Virus record (IMG/VR): IMGVR_UViG_3300037067_011079
Location: 781 to 64,780 of that record
DNA: 64,000 bases
Source: a virus
Taxonomy: Duplodnaviria; Caudoviricetes
Strand: one strand, 5' to 3'
In this document: positions 13,146-44,670 of the stretch, piece by piece
Position numbering within the stretch: the stretch's first letter is position 1
Layout of the letters: every line of letters starts with the position of its first letter
The notes under the pieces: model-generated
Database searches by the model: none
The model's input: the letters and a program-made list of their open reading frames with translations, nothing else
Told to the model about the DNA's origin: nothing
Position numbers and translations under genes: made by a program

Positions 13146-13516
13146 TCGCCAAACACTCTATCTATACATTCTTCCGATTTGACCATCATGACCATGCCGC
13201 CCGGCCTGATATGCGGGCTGAATCCCCACGTTTTTTCGCTATCTATCGGGCCGGTTTCCTGCGCCGCGCCATATTCGACCCCATTCGCGAGAGTTATCGC
13301 AAACTGGCATGGCGCGATCCTGGTTACGCTTGATGCCTCGGCGATGCTATCTTTCAGTGCCCCGGTATCCTTTCGGCACATGCCCTGCGCGGCAGCGACA
13401 CCTTCTAAGAGGATTTGCTGCGAGGCTTGCATGCCATTGGAATCTAGGCGCTTGATCTCTTCGGCTATAGCGGCACGGATAGCAGATTGATCTATCTTGA
13501 ACTGGATGTCACCCAT
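13142..13516 (-). CDS. HK97 gp10-like tail component
   Basis: A...C..DTGALKDSI...NGVEYGAAQETG...PHIRPG pattern. Confidence 0.7.
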   Translation of the reverse strand: MGDIQFKIDQSAIRAAIAEEIKRLDSNGMQASQQILLEGVAAAQGMCRKDTGALKDSIAEASSVTRIAPCQFAITLANGVEYGAAQETGPIDSEKTWGFSPHIRPGGMVMMVKSEECIDRVFGD

Positions 13517-14258
13517 ATAGCTCCTGCAATTTTGCCATGCTAGGATGAGGATGATCGGCAACCTTGGGCGAAAAATTGAACTCTTCCCATCCGCGACAAT
13601 TAATATCTACTTCTCCGGGATACATCTCGCCGTTGCTGTATGGGCGATCCATCGGCACTTCTTCCCCCATTATCTTTCGGTGAGATGGTCGCGTTCTGTG
13701 ATCGCCTACCTCACGCCGTATCCTAGATTTTGCTCCAGCTTCCAGCGAAATGATTCTTGCTCCTGATCGTATGGCCCGGCCTCTTTCCGTCCTGATTATC
13801 GTTTCCGGCCTATGGCCCGCGACTATCGAGACCAGGTTAGGCTCCTTGAGGATTTGCCTAGCCAATGGTCTTTCATTCTTCATCGAATTTTGCCAGATGA
13901 AGGCAGTAAGGCGCTTCTGGTCGGTGGCGGTCATGCGCTTAATCAGGAACCCGCCTCTTGCCCCCATGTAATCGGTCGCGATCTCGCGAACGTTGGGAGG
14001 CTTGATCAGGCCATATGCAACGATGAAGGCGGTACCGAAATCTACCATCTCAGGAAACAGCCACTTCTCCAAGACGCTCCAGACTTCGCGATTCTTGGCC
14101 AGGGAGGCTTTGCGATAGGCCGCCATCGCGCGGGGATTGAGAAGATCGGTTGCTGTATATGGTCCAGCGATATCGAAAAACCGTTGGCTTTTCAGGTACG
14201 CTTCGATTTCCGGGCCAAATTTCTTCAGGACGGCGGCAACCTCGCGATCAGGTAGCAT
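13509..14258 (-). CDS. Phage head morphogenesis protein (MuF/SPP1 gp7-like)
   Basis: TIIRTE...GDHRTRPSHRKI.GE.V.MDRPYSNG.MYPG...INCRG. Confidence 0.8.
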   Translation of the reverse strand: MLPDREVAAVLKKFGPEIEAYLKSQRFFDIAGPYTATDLLNPRAMAAYRKASLAKNREVWSVLEKWLFPEMVDFGTAFIVAYGLIKPPNVREIATDYMGARGGFLIKRMTATDQKRLTAFIWQNSMKNERPLARQILKEPNLVSIVAGHRPETIIRTERGRAIRSGARIISLEAGAKSRIRREVGDHRTRPSHRKIMGEEVPMDRPYSNGEMYPGEVDINCRGWEEFNFSPKVADHPHPSMAKLQELYG

Positions 14259-14267
14259 TGGAAACCT

Positions 14268-14597
14268 CTAGCTGCATATATCGTTCCTCGGCCAATCGAT
14301 ACTCATAAAATCATACGTATAATAATCCCCCATATACAAACCAAATGGCGTATATTCCCAGGATAGCTCTCTCAATTGCCGCTTATCTGCTTGTCTGCGC
14401 CCCATGTACCGCTTTTCCTTCAGCCTCTTGCATGTCGCGCAATTGCCCATGCAGTATGCCCCATATCGCCTGAAGATATACCAGTCCTCTGCAATGGCAA
14501 CTATCCTAGGATCATCCAGATTGCTCATGATCCATCCTTTTAGGCCGGGGCCGCCCAGAAGTGGCCGCTTGTGGTAATCTCTGATCGTGTGGCTCAT
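14268..14597 (-). CDS. Hypothetical protein with a CxxxCxxC-spaced Cys cluster (CMGNCATC)
   Basis: ORF track; fits the minus-strand operon. Confidence 0.5.
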   Translation of the reverse strand: MSHTIRDYHKRPLLGGPGLKGWIMSNLDDPRIVAIAEDWYIFRRYGAYCMGNCATCKRLKEKRYMGRRQADKRQLRELSWEYTPFGLYMGDYYTYDFMSIDWPRNDICS

Positions 14598-15368: not shown

Positions 15369-15695
15369 CTAACCAAATTTCCTGAATAATCGAGTCAGCC
15401 GGTGTTGCGAGTTCTCGGTGGGGGCCTTTTCTGGTGTCATGCCCGCTGCCTTGAATGCGCTCACAAGCTTTCTCATCTCGGCCTTATAATCACCCCTTTC
15501 GCCGGCGGCGGCGGTTGCCGCTTCTATCTGATTTTCTGACATTTTTGAATGGATCGGCACGCCACTATATCCCAGTGTTTTGGGCTCATTTGCCTTATTC
15601 GCTTCTCTGAATACCTCGCCGGGTTGCTGATTATCCGGCAGCGATGCACCGCCCCCGCCGCCAGATTTACTTCCGCCACTGCCACCACAACACAT
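15369..15695 (-). CDS. MCCGG-tag protein 2 (108 aa)
   Basis: Starts MCCGGSGGSKSGGGGGAS; AGGTG SD upstream; TATAAATA further upstream. Confidence 0.8.
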   Translation of the reverse strand: MCCGGSGGSKSGGGGGASLPDNQQPGEVFREANKANEPKTLGYSGVPIHSKMSENQIEAATAAAGERGDYKAEMRKLVSAFKAAGMTPEKAPTENSQHRLTRLFRKFG

Positions 15696-15810
15696 AATTA
15701 TGCACCTATCCATTTATCATATATTTTCATTTTGGGTAACTCCGAGGGAAGGTTATTTATACCATTATAGCCACTATAGTTATTGTGCGAAGGCACAAGG
15801 ACTGATACAA

Positions 15811-16137
15811 ATGGTAACTCAAGAAGCAATCAATATGATAATGTCTGGAAAGCATTCTGAGAAAATCGTCGCCGAAGAGGACGATGATTACTCCGAAAAG
15901 CTCCAGCGAGCGGCGGTTTCCTGCGAAGTTCCTGAATGGGTCAGGCGAGCCTCCCAAAGGATCATAGAGTCTTCTATGAGGCAGAATATCCCCGTAGATC
16001 GCGTGAGCTTCGACTCAGTTGGCCTCGGACTGCACGACAACATTGTAGAAGCCGCCATCATTGGATGCGAGTCAGAGCGATTCTTCAAGATTGTGATGAA
16101 TTTTGAAGAGGCAATCGAGAATATGAGGGGCTTCTAA
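15811..16137 (+). CDS. Hypothetical acidic protein
   Basis: ORF track, start corrected to MVTQEA. Confidence 0.6.
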   Translation: MVTQEAINMIMSGKHSEKIVAEEDDDYSEKLQRAAVSCEVPEWVRRASQRIIESSMRQNIPVDRVSFDSVGLGLHDNIVEAAIIGCESERFFKIVMNFEEAIENMRGF

Positions 16138-16374
16138 ATGGTCCGCCCCTGTAATTTTTGGGTAGATCAGGCAGACAAGTTTCACGGGGATTGCCAACAC
16201 CCGGATGTCCAACCGGGCACACCCTGTATCCTGAATACAGAGGACCACTGCATTCTCAGAGAGGAGTCTTCGACCACGATTCAGGTCTCTCGGCGAAATC
16301 GTGCCAGGCTGGAAAAGGTGGCATCGACCGCGAATTTAGCGGTCGAGAAGCTGCTAGATGACGCAGGATATTAG
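16138..16374 (+). CDS. Small Cys-containing protein with RHH-like C-terminus
   Basis: C-terminal TTIQVSRRNRARLEKV...AVEKLLD; abuts the upstream ORF. Confidence 0.55.
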   Translation: MVRPCNFWVDQADKFHGDCQHPDVQPGTPCILNTEDHCILREESSTTIQVSRRNRARLEKVASTANLAVEKLLDDAGY

Positions 16375-16856
16375 AAGAGAGTTGGGTCCCACTTTCGGCC
16401 AACTCTCTTCTCATATTCTTTGTCGAACTCCTTTTGTGATTGTTTTTTGGGCATCGGATTCGCTTTGGCATATTTTGTCGCCTCCGCCGGGGATCTGATA
16501 CCATAACCACGCGGCAAGGCATCATGTAAGGGATCGCCAGCAAACGGATCATTCCTGGTATTCTGCGTGACCCGTCTTGGTTGAATGACCGCTGCCCGTT
16601 GCGGTGCGTTGGATTTTCCCAAGAGTTCATGTGGCTTGATTTTCGCGGCAGTCGCTAAATCGGATGCCTTGAACATTAAATCCTTCGCGGTTGCATAATC
16701 TCCTTTGGATTTTGCTTCATTGGCTTGCGCTTGCATCAACTTTACGGCTTCAATTACTTGACTTCGTTGCAGACTTCCCGATGATATGTTCTCTTGGATT
16801 GTATTGCCGCCGCCACCTCCGCCCGATTTACTTCCTCCGCTTCCACCACAGCACAT
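16371..16856 (-). CDS. MCCGG-tag protein 1 (161 aa, basic)
   Basis: Starts MCCGGSGGSKSGGGGGGN; the ATG overlaps the radical SAM stop codon (TAATG); GAGGTG SD. Confidence 0.85.
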   Translation of the reverse strand: MCCGGSGGSKSGGGGGGNTIQENISSGSLQRSQVIEAVKLMQAQANEAKSKGDYATAKDLMFKASDLATAAKIKPHELLGKSNAPQRAAVIQPRRVTQNTRNDPFAGDPLHDALPRGYGIRSPAEATKYAKANPMPKKQSQKEFDKEYEKRVGRKWDPTLF

Positions 16857-17962
16857 TAAGAACACCTCGAATAAGTCATATCGTCTTTGTGAAAAACAAT
16901 GCCCGGAACCGCCTTAGTCAATCGGCCCTTAGACCATTCCATTGCAAATTCCTTGTCCCAAGGACAGTCTAAACCAGCCATATATTCCTCATAGCTCGTA
17001 TGCTCAGTTATCTTATGCCCTCGGACATGATACGCCCAAGGAGCAGCCGCAAATCCCGGCGCACCATCGATGCCACAACATGACCTCCAGTTACGGGTTC
17101 CTGTAAAATCGTCAACAGACAGCACTTCCAGCCCAATCTCGCGACAGATCTCTTCCAGTTTCAGGATCTCTGTTTTTTGATCTGACAGACTGGCAATCCT
17201 GAAGTTGTGTCGTTGCTCCCAAGACACGCAAGAATTATCAGGCAAGTCATAGCCTAAAGTTTGGCGGAATCGCGCTCTGTCGTTGCCTGCATTGAAGAGC
17301 TTCAAGAAATTTGCTTGGACAGTCCTAACTCCGGCATCATGGGCGGCATTTAGCAGAACCTCCAGATTGCCACATAGATCGGGGATGTAAGGGACTAGCC
17401 GTAGGATGCAAGTAACGCCGGAATCGGAAAGAGTGGACATAGCAGCAAGCCGCCTCTTCCAGCTCGGAGCTGCAGGTTCTAGGACACTTAGCATGGCCTG
17501 ATCCTCACTTGATATGCTGCATTGTACCACAAGAGGCAGGCCGTCGATGGCCGCCAAATAGGGATCTTCTGTGAGCATGCCCGGCCACTTGGTAGTTATG
17601 ATGGTCGGATATTCGAAGTCTTTTAGGATGCCCAATGTCTTCAAGGTTATGCGATGCGCCTTTTCTAACGGCTGAAGAGGATCACTTGATGGTGACATCT
17701 GCACCGGATATCTGCGATCTATAAGCTGCCTCTCCATGCCGCGCGACTTATAGAAGATGTGCTCGATATATTTTATGGGGCTTGGGGCCACCTGGTCGAA
17801 ATGGCCCATCGCGCGACTATCCCATCTCGCGGTCTGCGCTCCCATGCTACAGTATTTGCATCCGCCTTGGCAACCCCTGTAACAATTGATTTTCAAGGGG
17901 ATGGGGCACAAGAGACGGTCGTCCCCATCGGCAATGAAGGCGGGGCGATTGTAGGGAAGCAT
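16856..17962 (-). CDS. Radical SAM enzyme (spore photoproduct lyase-like family)
   Basis: CQGGCKYC (CxxxCxxC); SDPLQP.E; ITTK; LEP.AP...RRL motifs. Confidence 0.9.
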   Translation of the reverse strand: MLPYNRPAFIADGDDRLLCPIPLKINCYRGCQGGCKYCSMGAQTARWDSRAMGHFDQVAPSPIKYIEHIFYKSRGMERQLIDRRYPVQMSPSSDPLQPLEKAHRITLKTLGILKDFEYPTIITTKWPGMLTEDPYLAAIDGLPLVVQCSISSEDQAMLSVLEPAAPSWKRRLAAMSTLSDSGVTCILRLVPYIPDLCGNLEVLLNAAHDAGVRTVQANFLKLFNAGNDRARFRQTLGYDLPDNSCVSWEQRHNFRIASLSDQKTEILKLEEICREIGLEVLSVDDFTGTRNWRSCCGIDGAPGFAAAPWAYHVRGHKITEHTSYEEYMAGLDCPWDKEFAMEWSKGRLTKAVPGIVFHKDDMTYSRCS

Positions 17963-28858: not shown

Positions 28859-29863
28859 CTAGGGCACCAGCACAGAGAACGGGTACCTGCTCGCGTCGGT
28901 TGTCTGGATCTGGTTTTCGGGGTTGGGGAGTTGCCAGCCAAGCCTGCATGTGACTCGCATAGCGAGCATGTCCTGTTGCAATAGGTTGAACACGACAGCA
29001 CCAGAAGCATCGGTGATCACGCCGCTATCGAATATCTTATAGGTGATATCCTGCCTCCAGCAGTAGACGGCCCTTTGCCAATCGCCCGCGATCAGGAGCG
29101 CGGCTGTGCTATCCAGAGCGCCGTTCTTGGGGAATGCCACCGGCACACCGGCCAAGCTGTACTTAGTTGGGCTGGTCACGTCGGGCTGAAGCAAGAACTG
29201 TCCTGTAGAGTCTCTGAGGCCCCGGAGAGCAGCCTTTTGGCTGAGTGCTCCAACAATGCCATTGACATCATAGCCATCGGCCTCTACCAGGGCAAACAGG
29301 CCGCCTTCTCCCAGGATGGCATCTGCGAGATCCGGGAATGTCAGGCCGGAACCAACCGAAGAGGACTTATCGATGCTCTGAGACTTGCTTGTGGCATCGG
29401 TTACGATGCCATTGGGCCAGGACGTAGGCTTGTTTGTGCCGTGGATGATGGCTGCATCAATCGCCTTTGCAATGGCCTCAGCGAGCCGAGGGGCCGTTTC
29501 GCCCCAAATATCATAGCCACCGCTTGCAGCGTCATCAATGACGGCAGACGGGATCGGCACAATAACAGCAAGCTCTTCAGCCGTGATGGTGGCATAGGAC
29601 CAGTTCTGCTTTGTGGTCTTCTTCAGGCCTTCGTCGTATGAAGAGCTGGTGCCATCGCCAGACTCGGACGCCAGGAAGTAGGCCGTAGGGTACAGGCTCA
29701 TGACCGGCAACTGCCTAACCTTGGTAGGCATGTCGTTGAGCCTGGTCATCCTGGGTAGGGTAAAGCTTCCCTCGATGGCGGTCTGGATGATAGTCTTTGC
29801 ATATTCGGTTGGGATAAGGTTACTTACCCCGCTCCGAGTGATAATATTGTCATAATCTGTCAT
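28859..29863 (-). CDS. Major capsid protein (HK97 fold)
   Basis: LIPTEYAK.II; AEELAVIVPI; LAEAIAKAIDAAII.G; GDW; QQDM.A.RVTCRLG. Confidence 0.92.
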   Translation of the reverse strand: MTDYDNIITRSGVSNLIPTEYAKTIIQTAIEGSFTLPRMTRLNDMPTKVRQLPVMSLYPTAYFLASESGDGTSSSYDEGLKKTTKQNWSYATITAEELAVIVPIPSAVIDDAASGGYDIWGETAPRLAEAIAKAIDAAIIHGTNKPTSWPNGIVTDATSKSQSIDKSSSVGSGLTFPDLADAILGEGGLFALVEADGYDVNGIVGALSQKAALRGLRDSTGQFLLQPDVTSPTKYSLAGVPVAFPKNGALDSTAALLIAGDWQRAVYCWRQDITYKIFDSGVITDASGAVVFNLLQQDMLAMRVTCRLGWQLPNPENQIQTTDASRYPFSVLVP

Positions 29864-29878
29864 AAGAAATTACCTCAT

Positions 29879-30439
29879 TCATCGGCCCCCCCTACCAGCA
29901 GCCGCGAGAATAGCCGCGTTCATGAACGCATGCTTGCTTTCCGGCGCCTCGCTGCCGGATGGAGTAGGATTGCCGATGTTCTTTTTTAGCTTTAGGCCAA
30001 AATCGGCGGCTATTGACTCGATGTTCTTTAGGATTTCCTCTTCGTTCTTGCCCTTAACGTATTTTAGCAAATTACTTGGAAGAGGCTCGCCGCTTTTGGT
30101 CTTGAAGTCAGAGAACAGTTTGGTCCGAAGTTCCAGCGCCTCGAATTTCTCGAGTTTCTTCTTAGTGGACTCGGCCTCTTTCTTGGCCTCATCGCGCTCA
30201 AGCTGGAGCTGTTGGGCTTCGGTGAGCTTGGACTTCTCGATTTCTTTGAGCTTCGTCTTCAGGTCGTCATAGTCTGCGAATTGTTCCTTAATTCGCGACC
30301 TTTCGGCTGAAAGAATCTTGCCAAGCTTCTTTTTCTGTTCGGGTGTAAAATCATCAGATTCCGGCTCTGACGGGTTCGCCGATGCACCAGATTTATCTGC
30401 TGGCGGCTGGTTCCCGCCATTAAGCTCATCATCTGTCAT
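29879..30439 (-). CDS. Capsid scaffolding protein
   Basis: Coiled coil FADYDDLK.K...KLTEAQ; position between portal and MCP. Confidence 0.8.
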   Translation of the reverse strand: MTDDELNGGNQPPADKSGASANPSEPESDDFTPEQKKKLGKILSAERSRIKEQFADYDDLKTKLKEIEKSKLTEAQQLQLERDEAKKEAESTKKKLEKFEALELRTKLFSDFKTKSGEPLPSNLLKYVKGKNEEEILKNIESIAADFGLKLKKNIGNPTPSGSEAPESKHAFMNAAILAAAGRGGR

Positions 30440-30549
30440 GTAATTTCACCAAACTTTAACGCAAGTTAGCAGCGAGTAGGAATTGTTAACGGACAACTCC
30501 CAAAACCGAAATATTGAAATTATTATCAAAAAAGAATAATACGGGCAGC

Positions 30550-31884
30550 CTATATGCCGCCCTGTAAAGCCAACTCTTCCTTAATTTGCATCTGGTCAGC
30601 ATCGGCCTGGTCTGAGGTCCATCCGTACCGACGCATTGCAGCGGCCTTCTTGCTAGATATGCCTGCCGTTGTATCGTTCATCTCTATCTGAGACTGTTGC
30701 AATTCGTCTTCTGGCAGGCCATCCTTCCATTTGATGGTTATCTCATTGGGCTCAATTGGGATGTCTGACAGGCCCGCCAACAGCAATATAAGCTTCTTTA
30801 GGGCAGGATCTATATTGAGCCTTAAGCGCTCGACGCGCTTCAATGGGGCCATCATTCGCAGTCTGAGCGAGGTGCCACTTTCGGCAGTGCCGCTTATGGA
30901 TTGGCCGAAGGCTTGCGGGCAGGTTTCAGACAACGCATAGAGCTGATCCATGAGGAAAGAGATCTCTTGGAAGGAAGCCGATAACTGCCCGTCCCAGGTG
31001 ATGTACTCGGGCGGCTTCTGCCCATCCGCCATCGGGAAAACTCGAAGATTGCTGTCATAGGACATTTCGCCCGTTTCCGGGTTCCTGGTCACTGCATCTT
31101 CAGGAACTCCCATCGCAGGCTCAGAGTGCGCGTCTAGGATTCGGCCTAACCTAGTAAGCCTGGTTTCCAGCCGCTTGATAATGGGGTCGAGGGAGGTATA
31201 ATCATCTATCCCCCATTGGTTCGTGGTGGTTGTCAGATTGCAGAAGGGGATTAACAGGAAATCGTCTATACCATATGTCTCTTTGGCCTCTTTGTTAATT
31301 TCTATCTCAGTGGCCTCACTAGCAATCTTGCCATCGATTACCTGGTAAGTCCTGGTTTCGACTTCGCCTTTGCGGTGAATCTCACAGTTCAAAGTTTTGT
31401 CAACTTGCCAGGCTAAAAGATGCTCTATAACCCGCCCAGAAGTATCGACGACAGGGAACCACCTAGAAGGCGCGATGGCCTGAGCATGTGGTAGGCCTGA
31501 CTCATCCAGATATGCCTTTATTGGCCCGGTACCAAATCGAGATGTATCGATCAGGGCTTTATATGCCTCTGGAAATAGCGAAGTATCAAGAATGAGCTGA
31601 TCAATCGCTTTCTGGCTGCTTTCGGATACCTTAATTTCAGGCAGTTCGCCGATCAACAGATCAGGCCACAAGGTCGATAGCCTGCGATGCCAATTCAGGC
31701 ACATCACTATCTTCTGGTGTTCGGCTGCATTCTCATGGAAGAGTCTGAGTAGGCCTGTATAAACCGCGGTATGATTGCCATCGAAAAGGTTTTCATTTTG
31801 CTTATATAGCGTGAGCCTAGTTTTTTCGGCATCGGGAGGCCATCGCAAACCTTTTTGCAAGATCGAATCTGCATCATAAATCAT
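30550..31884 (-). CDS. Portal protein (SPP1 gp6-like)
   Basis: Follows TerL; GIDDY..LDPI; YITWDG; ESGTSLR..M; ITIKWKDGLP. Confidence 0.88.
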   Translation of the reverse strand: MIYDADSILQKGLRWPPDAEKTRLTLYKQNENLFDGNHTAVYTGLLRLFHENAAEHQKIVMCLNWHRRLSTLWPDLLIGELPEIKVSESSQKAIDQLILDTSLFPEAYKALIDTSRFGTGPIKAYLDESGLPHAQAIAPSRWFPVVDTSGRVIEHLLAWQVDKTLNCEIHRKGEVETRTYQVIDGKIASEATEIEINKEAKETYGIDDFLLIPFCNLTTTTNQWGIDDYTSLDPIIKRLETRLTRLGRILDAHSEPAMGVPEDAVTRNPETGEMSYDSNLRVFPMADGQKPPEYITWDGQLSASFQEISFLMDQLYALSETCPQAFGQSISGTAESGTSLRLRMMAPLKRVERLRLNIDPALKKLILLLAGLSDIPIEPNEITIKWKDGLPEDELQQSQIEMNDTTAGISSKKAAAMRRYGWTSDQADADQMQIKEELALQGGI

Positions 31885-38002: not shown

Positions 38003-38092
38003 AGCCACATGAGAGACTTGAACTCCCGACAGGGGGATATTCTGGAGGAATATCTTACAGATCCCCGACTCTACCAACTGAGCTAATGTGGC
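38003..38092 (-). tRNA. tRNA-Thr(UGU) with a 17 nt intron at 37/38 (38039-38055) and non-canonical C33
   Basis: GCCACAT/ATGTGGC acceptor with U73; GCTC/GAGT D stem; GGGGA/TCCCC anticodon stem; GGGAG-TTCAAGT-CTCTC T arm; strict BHB (TCTG/CAGA helix, two 3 nt bulges). Confidence 0.85.
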
Positions 38093-44483: not shown

Positions 44484-44579
44484 TTATCACACCTCACGAA
44501 TATTAACTCCCTCAATTCAAACATGCCCAGTTTCACTAACACAAGTTGGCCGCTCATGCTCTCTTATCACAGGGAGAGA

Positions 44580-44659
44580 TATGTCGGGCCGGATTTGAAC
44601 CGGCGTTCTGGAAGGCATCATGCGATCCCAGGTTCTTGGCCGTGCTGAACTACCGACAT
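44580..44659 (-). tRNA. tRNA-like RNA with an aberrant 12 nt anticodon loop
   Basis: ATGTCGG/CCGACAT acceptor; GTTC/GAAC D stem; TGGGA/TTCCA stem; GCCGG-TTCAAAT-CCGGC T arm; loop TCGCATGATGCC. Confidence 0.7.
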
Positions 44660-44670
44660 AGGGGGAATGC

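Follow-up and report, generated by a model that had tools for sequence, protein, structure and literature searches.

What does a radical S-adenosylmethionine (SAM) enzyme do in a tailed virus when the genes beside it encode unrelated proteins that begin with the same peptide? The question is raised by a virus (Duplodnaviria; Caudoviricetes) known from a 64.78-kb record with a completeness rating of 100% (IMG/VR record IMGVR_UViG_3300037067_011079), of which we analysed a stretch of 64,000 nt, here called the window. In it, a radical SAM gene resembling spore photoproduct lyase (SPL), encoding 368 amino acids (aa) at 16856-17962 on the minus strand, is accompanied on the same strand by two tagged cargo genes, gene A (16371-16856; 161 aa) and, 1.2 kb beyond it, gene B (15369-15695; 108 aa), whose first 16 residues, MCCGGSGGSKSGGGGG, are identical. 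We propose that enzyme and tag constitute a module that would mark effector proteins which can be exchanged for one another, probably so that they are delivered with the virion, a reading to which we assign a probability of roughly 0.45.

Two genes with a common N-terminal tag

The stretches encoding the tag (16809-16856 in gene A and 15648-15695 in gene B, both minus strand) differ at 8 of their 48 nucleotides, every difference falling at a third codon position and being synonymous. Since 35 of the 144 possible single changes in this DNA are silent, eight random changes would all be silent with a probability of ~1.2e-5, which bears out the view that the peptide rather than the DNA is conserved. 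The whole 64.78-kb genome contains two copies of the tag only, those of genes A and B. The tag of gene A leads into a basic body (isoelectric point (pI) 9.8) without a match to any known family, and that of gene B is followed by a second motif, SLPDNQQPGEVFRxA, and a basic body of pI 9.4. Shine-Dalgarno-like sequences precede both genes on the minus strand: GAGGTG (16863-16868) lies 6 nt 5' of the gene A ATG, within the end of the radical SAM gene, and AGGTG (15703-15707) lies 7 nt 5' of the gene B ATG; related loci have the same spacing as gene A.

Much of what the original prediction had read from this locus is confirmed by coordinates and alignment, namely the shared 16-residue start with its eight synonymous differences, the gene A ATG that has one base in common with the radical SAM stop codon (TAATG), and a MuF gene nearby, at 13509-14258. 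It had further described the two bodies as largely unrelated apart from a weak KGDY/RGDY helix; BLASTP comparison of the bodies agrees that they are unrelated and finds no significance in the KGDY/RGDY likeness.

Pairing of the enzyme clade with Met-Cys genes

The enzyme belongs to a clade of 56 clusters with 46-92% identity, for which 15 genomic contexts have enough flanking sequence to be counted: the window, L001, L002, L033-L035, L038-L041, L043, L044-L046 and the near-complete genome G003 (L042 and L055). L044-L046 are Methanothrix/Methanosaeta contigs from metagenome-assembled genomes (MAGs), and the other contexts are mostly viral contigs. L003, L030 and L031, which end at the tag, and P0050 and P0119, known as protein only, yield no context. 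All 15 contexts contain one to three small same-strand genes that start with Met-Cys, amounting to 22 genes of 34-195 aa, most of which overlap the radical SAM gene or sit a few nucleotides from it, either upstream or downstream. A radical SAM homologue of 24% identity on a human-gut contig has no tagged neighbour, and the proposed tie between the tag and this particular clade is thus upheld. P0007 is found at contig ends or close to them, and the 378 nt upstream of it contain no radical SAM gene.

Across the 22 genes, position 2 is invariably Cys (22/22), position 3 is Gly in 18, position 4 is Gly in 20, position 5 is Ser or Thr in 20 and position 6 is Gly in 20. Two details of the tag as first described are not supported. 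The Cys-Cys pair is not a feature of the family, in which only Cys2 is invariant, nor is the Gly run a fixed recognition sequence, as it ranges from near zero (MCGGSGEKIEE, MCGGTGKTKL) up to 14 Gly. A near-identical copy of gene B (L031:124-435) carries a tag five residues shorter (MCCGGSGGGGG), so the Gly/Ser run is length-polymorphic between close strains. In five of the 22 genes the codon preceding the Cys is ATT, ACG or GTG, and the Shine-Dalgarno spacing suits that codon as a start. The combination of ACG or ATT before the Cys with a well-spaced Shine-Dalgarno site suggests near-cognate start codons in four genes that overlap the end of the radical SAM gene.

Gly-rich starts behind DUF4417 as part of a wider family

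Homologues of gene B form 55 clusters at 50% identity among 1.8 billion proteins. They combine a Gly-rich start with the second motif D-[NA]-[QG]-QPGEV-[FV]-R-x-A and then run into unrelated tails, and their residues 2-3 are CC, CG, GG, PK, AK or SK. Searching viral sequences with the gene B alignment gave no more than two confirmed loci, as tblastn cannot follow such variable bodies. Every Cys-free member with a readable context (L004, L005 with two in tandem, L007, L010, L023 and L032) lies directly behind a gene encoding a DUF4417 protein, and most of these contexts are just upstream of terminase genes. Scoring the Gly-rich start as M-x(1-3)-[SGAT]-G-[GSN]-[GTSV]-[GR], as in MAKGSGGTR and MGGNSGGGGNGGR, we found the motif in the gene following DUF4417 at 50 of 67 viral loci, against a background of 13 among 2863 Met positions. 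None of these 50 DUF4417-linked tags has Cys at position 2. Cultured phages are among the carriers: in Gordonia phage Anon, gp1 is a DUF4417 protein and the next gene product, gp2, is a 'metalloprotease' that starts Gly-rich, and in Bacteroides phage Versailles a 'nuclease' open reading frame (ORF) with a DUF4417 match precedes a protein starting MGRNSSGTRGG. DUF4417 proteins of this clade also occur in Methanotrichaceae MAGs. The original prediction had suggested that bacterial phages pair modification-like enzymes with proteins of MGG-type start, and the DUF4417 pairing shows this analogue to be real. The commonest DUF4417-type tag (loci L078-L123), MAKGSGGTRNxR, looks similar to the N-terminal AGGSTRNGR of ribosomal protein L27 in bacteria.

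The two modules are alike in placing a Gly-rich N-terminal label on hypervariable basic proteins directly behind, and often overlapping, one enzyme-like gene, in having the QQPGEVFR motif in common, and in occurring in viruses linked to Methanotrichaceae. They differ in that the enzyme here is a radical SAM protein, with no homology to DUF4417 detectable by profile-profile comparison, in that Cys2 is obligatory beside the one and never seen beside the other, and in that the conserved Arg of DUF4417-type tags is dispensable in radical SAM tags. The literature examined that mentions DUF4417 does not describe the tag pairing; the DUF4417 and Gly-tag module is unpublished as far as we found, and the Cys2 version with its radical SAM enzyme, together with the natural exchange of that enzyme for DUF4417, appears to be new.

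Tag type follows the enzyme rather than the head genes

Clustering of 46 tagged proteins after removal of their first 25 residues gave at least 30 body families, confirming that the tag is portable over unrelated bodies. Five of these families span the radical SAM and DUF4417 systems: the ADP-ribosyltransferase pair L041/L083; L042/L056; L038:4100 with L105, L112 and L113; L038:4448/L063; and gene B of the window with L104. In all five, residue 2 varies with the neighbouring enzyme: it is Cys where that is the radical SAM protein, and Gly, Ala, Pro or Ser where it is DUF4417. The enzymes are mutually exclusive in the near-complete genomes, G000, the complete genome of the window virus, and G003 having the radical SAM gene only and G001 having DUF4417 only; in G000 a radical SAM gene stands in place of DUF4417. 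Relationships among head genes run the other way. G000 and the DUF4417-type G001 have portal proteins of 41% and major capsid proteins of 50% identity, whereas G000 and G003, with radical SAM enzymes that are 77% identical, have no detectable portal or capsid similarity. The window virus is accordingly a mosaic (28859-31884 compared with G001 and G003), with head genes in common with G001 and the module in common with G003. On this comparative evidence, tag type follows the enzyme and not the head genes, which argues that the tag is read by the enzyme rather than by a head protein.

This bears directly on the quite improbable alternative that scaffold, portal or capsid proteins read the tag simply as a signal for capsid targeting, in the manner of the capsid-targeting sequence (CTS) of phage T4, and that the enzyme does an unrelated job. 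T4 packages Alt, its CTS is cut off by the prohead protease, and we know of no dedicated modifying enzyme for it. The internal proteins of T4 are diverse defence proteins with only the CTS in common (PMC3012670), and the proteins studied here resemble them as unrelated, basic, fast-evolving effectors united by a short N-terminal label; Alt-like ADP-ribosyltransferases are a cargo class in both, and the module sits in the structural region beside MuF. In T4 it is the scaffolding core that reads the CTS (PMC3012670), whereas the present tag covaries with the adjacent enzyme: G000 and G003 combine the same enzyme and tag with unlike heads, G000 and G001 do the reverse, and residue 2 switches with the enzyme in the five cross-system families. 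Start and stop codons of enzyme and cargo, moreover, overlap or abut in both systems.

From the pairing, the covariation and the cargo, we infer that the SPL-like radical SAM enzyme would recognise and chemically act on the N-terminal label Met-Cys-Gly-Gly-Ser/Thr-Gly, with the invariant Cys2 as the likely reactive residue. The label, which usually leads into a presumably flexible Gly-rich stretch, would be carried by interchangeable small basic proteins, here those of genes A and B, and its marking would most likely render them competent for virion delivery, to be loaded with the DNA and injected as are Alt and the internal proteins of T4. The locus of the window would then represent a radical SAM/Cys version of a wider DUF4417 module with Cys-free Gly-rich starts.

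Cargo proteins

The tagged bodies are basic, with a median pI of 9.6 and a pI above 9 in 37 of 46. One radical-SAM-linked protein of 195 aa, at L041:1751-2335, belongs to the ADP-ribosyltransferases (PF03496, E 1e-24; Alt-like PHROGs), and the tag on its body homologue in L083 is of the DUF4417 type. The remaining tagged proteins include matches to LPD3, a domain found in large polyvalent proteins, and to PHROGs with the labels 'virion structural protein' and 'minor head protein'. The module lies within the structural and packaging region, near MuF in the window and near terminase and portal genes elsewhere. The packaging or injection role put forward in the original prediction is plausible because the cargo includes Alt-like ADP-ribosyltransferases, LPD3 and head-protein-like families. 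In phage MuF-type polymorphic toxins and polyvalent proteins, which Jamet et al. 2017 and Iyer et al. 2017 are said to have described, a constant N-terminus reportedly routes variable effectors into virions. The present system resembles these in its LPD3 and ADP-ribosyltransferase cargo and in the MuF gene close by, and differs in that its constant part is a tag of 6-20 residues with its own enzyme gene and no MuF domain.

The same cargo could instead belong to a toxin-handling or polymorphic-toxin cassette, in which the enzyme would activate, mask or export tagged toxins for host takeover, superinfection exclusion or competition, and no loading into virions would occur. A constant N-terminus joined to a variable C-terminus would fit such a cassette, as would ADP-ribosyltransferases and a metalloprotease (gp2 of Gordonia phage Anon) among the cargo. 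Closely after genes A and B, however, there is no immunity-like gene on the same strand, the neighbours being on the opposite strand; the module sits among viral structural and packaging genes, and neither export machinery nor a signal peptide was found. We consider a toxin cassette improbable.

Several short cargo proteins (L034:6096-6254, L035:5885-6076, L044:4085-4249, P0009, P0087 and P0095) have a second element, approximately K-V-L-V-x-G-G-(K/Q)-V-x-P-G-T-K-A-Y, some 35-45 residues past the tag. It looks similar to YNVAPGTK, a stretch of YedK, and to RGTK, a stretch of ribosomal protein L27, likenesses that find no backing in profile matches. We make no claim that the short cargo (MCGG..., then GKVxPGTKAY) is SRAP or ribosomal protein L27, because Pfam, searched with E as high as 10, gave no match.

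The radical SAM enzyme and its possible substrates

The radical SAM motif for binding the [4Fe-4S] cluster, CX3CX2C (C31-x3-C35-x2-C38), lies near the N-terminus of the enzyme and is invariant in 16 clade members. Four further Cys, C19, C295, C296 and C333, are also invariant in these members and include those of the motifs WRxCCG and DCPW; they lack a SPASM signature and could be ligands of a second Fe-S cluster. Profile matches are weak: PF04055 of Pfam scores 18.8 bits against a cut-off of 29.5, the nearest NCBIfam models are PA0069 (83 bits, cut-off 360) and Rv2578c (62 bits, cut-off 430), and the PHROG match is to an unnamed family, phrog_13321. Because the scores are far below the cut-offs, we place the enzyme outside the curated SplB-like families (COG1533; PA0069, Rv2578c). 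A PDB sequence search with the enzyme profile returned no significant chain match. An AlphaFold model (predicted local distance difference test (pLDDT) score 80) has radical SAM enzymes as all of its top PDB matches, in agreement with the partial TIM-barrel fold of that superfamily; SPL 4fhg is the best (template modelling (TM) score 0.50, E 3e-7, 15% identity), with 4fhc and related entries beside it at the head of the ranking. The few named clusters of the clade carry 'DNA repair photolyase' labels or originate from Methanothrix or Pacearchaeota MAGs.

The structural ranking gives some substance to the idea that the enzymes act on viral DNA, with the basic tagged proteins as DNA-bound partners. 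Besides SPL as the best structural match, a phage SPL-like radical SAM enzyme, gp53 of phage M6, works on DNA-borne glycine (PMC8989533) and so offers a phage-encoded precedent with the same CX3CX2C core. DUF4417 is often fused to a ParB fold (bioRxiv 10.1101/2025.10.10.680097), and its model is a TIM-like barrel for which four of the top five matches are tRNA/DNA-guanine transglycosylases at borderline Z scores of 8.2-8.5, the top matches including TGT, ArcTGT, QTRT2 and DpdA. The cargo is basic, and its N-terminal Cys2 corresponds to the residue by which the SRAP proteins YedK and HMCES, which start Met-Cys-Gly-Arg, cross-link abasic DNA (PMC6821365); an invariant exposed Cys2 followed by Gly is common to both, making SRAP a chemical precedent for an N-terminal Cys as a cross-linking handle.

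Against this stand several points. The fold matches are weak (TM 0.5 for the radical SAM enzyme; Z ~8, borderline, for DUF4417), and the enzyme differs from SPL in having only 15% identity, a motif near the N-terminus and four extra invariant Cys. The genome of the window virus has no recognisable hypermodification genes, including thymidylate-synthase-like ones, and M6-like thymidine hypermodification was rejected, the pathway genes not having been found there; the conserved partner of the enzyme is a protein tag and not, as with SPL and M6 gp53, a DNA-pathway gene. The cargo has neither SRAP similarity nor an SRAP fold or Pfam match, its likeness to SRAP is limited to the first three or four residues, and the Cys of SRAP proteins works with no partner enzyme. 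Contact with DNA would be purely conjectural, and we regard action on DNA as unlikely.

In the strongest form of the DNA explanation, the SPL-like enzyme (DUF4417 in sister viruses) would tether tagged N-termini covalently to the viral genome, through a thioether- or thiazolidine-type bond at Cys2 or, beside DUF4417, through the N-terminal amine or Arg, so that effectors would be packaged and pulled into the cell attached to the DNA. We hold this conjugate to be a doubtful proposition of rather low probability.

A radical SAM gene that adjoins small ORFs with an invariant Cys also calls to mind RiPPs (peptides made by the ribosome and modified after translation), the tagged ORFs being precursors of peptides cross-linked by thioether or similar bonds. 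Several partners are indeed just 34-63 aa (L034, L035, L039, L043-L046), and in the maturases of sactipeptides, ranthipeptides and streptide, as here, one radical SAM enzyme serves several substrates with a common recognition sequence and Cys. The conserved element, however, is the extreme N-terminus, the first six residues with a single conserved Cys, rather than a leader and core; the partners include the 195-aa ADP-ribosyltransferase and other proteins of 100-160 aa; no protease or exporter is present in the neighbourhood; and sister viruses swap in a non-radical-SAM protein with Cys-free tags. Searches of Pfam and NCBIfam that admitted E values as high as 0.1 gave no SPASM/twitch match for the enzyme. 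As there is no SPASM match and the substrates would be whole proteins, among them an enzyme, identity as a RiPP maturase was rejected, and the sactipeptide- or ranthipeptide-type chemistry suggested originally is not supported. A RiPP-like pathway is very unlikely.

Points weighing against marking of the tag by the enzyme

Several observations count against the proposal that the enzyme marks tagged effectors, which draws on comparison throughout. Genes A and B have no match in Pfam, PHROG or NCBIfam, including to any known effector family. The enzyme has no match to a peptide-recognition (RRE) domain, and its nearest solved relative acts on DNA, not protein. Four of the genes with ATT or ACG before the Cys (L002:5109, L044:4085, L038:4100 and L033:5993) have a possible in-frame start 2-4 codons upstream, and Cys may therefore not always be residue 2 across the tagged genes. 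Finally, the 15 of 15 paired contexts are not independent events because the loci come from related viruses; the five cargo families that cross between systems are more independent evidence than this count.

Host and other features of the genome

The original suggestion of an archaeal origin is probable: three of four reference-genome matches to the enzyme are on Methanothrix/Methanosaeta MAG contigs, and since homologues lie on such contigs the host is probably archaeal, a Methanothrix. The replication and accessory region (33739-57236) encodes PCNA, RecT, a DEAD-type helicase, an N6/N4 DNA methylase, a UbiA prenyltransferase, a FilR1-like regulator, DnaJ and DUF1937, of which PCNA and the FilR1-like methanogenesis regulator suggest, by their annotation, an archaeal methanogen as host. 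At 38003-38092 (minus strand) ARAGORN calls a tRNA-Tyr(gta) of 90 nt, where an earlier note read an intron-containing tRNA-Thr, and the two calls disagree; a second ARAGORN tRNA call, of undetermined type, lies at 44578-44660 (minus strand). DNA runs from groundwater and from landfill contain the stretch. Wastewater runs that carry an RNA-Seq label, but may contain DNA, include short contigs identical to it, and no RNA dataset is listed as carrying the stretch.

Between the two tagged genes, two plus-strand ORFs of 145 and 78 aa fill 15700-16374, the second with a ribbon-helix-helix-like end. Small opposite-strand ORFs likewise lie between the two tagged genes of L001, and a weak RHH_1 gene is found close to the tagged gene of L048; such ORFs might encode a regulator or an antidote. 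Directly upstream of MuF is a 109-aa Cys-rich ORF (14268-14597, minus strand) that starts MSHTIRDYHKRPLLGGPGLKGW and keeps the same position in L003.

Implications

If marking by the enzyme is correct, a label of six N-terminal residues allows one enzyme to mark many interchangeable viral proteins, and the branch of SPL-like radical SAM enzymes, most members of which have no known function, would gain a substrate class, the N-termini of full-size proteins, and possibly a new chemistry. Should the DNA tether be true instead, effectors would be delivered as DNA-protein conjugates made by an enzyme. A portable tag with its own enzyme might also be developed into a tool that loads capsids with proteins. 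The swap between radical SAM with Cys and DUF4417 without Cys would give a direct handle on the role of the widespread DUF4417 module in hundreds of phages, and the marking proposed here would, if true, reveal the way in which archaeal and bacterial tailed viruses load or control their fast-evolving effectors, ADP-ribosyltransferases and proteases among them.

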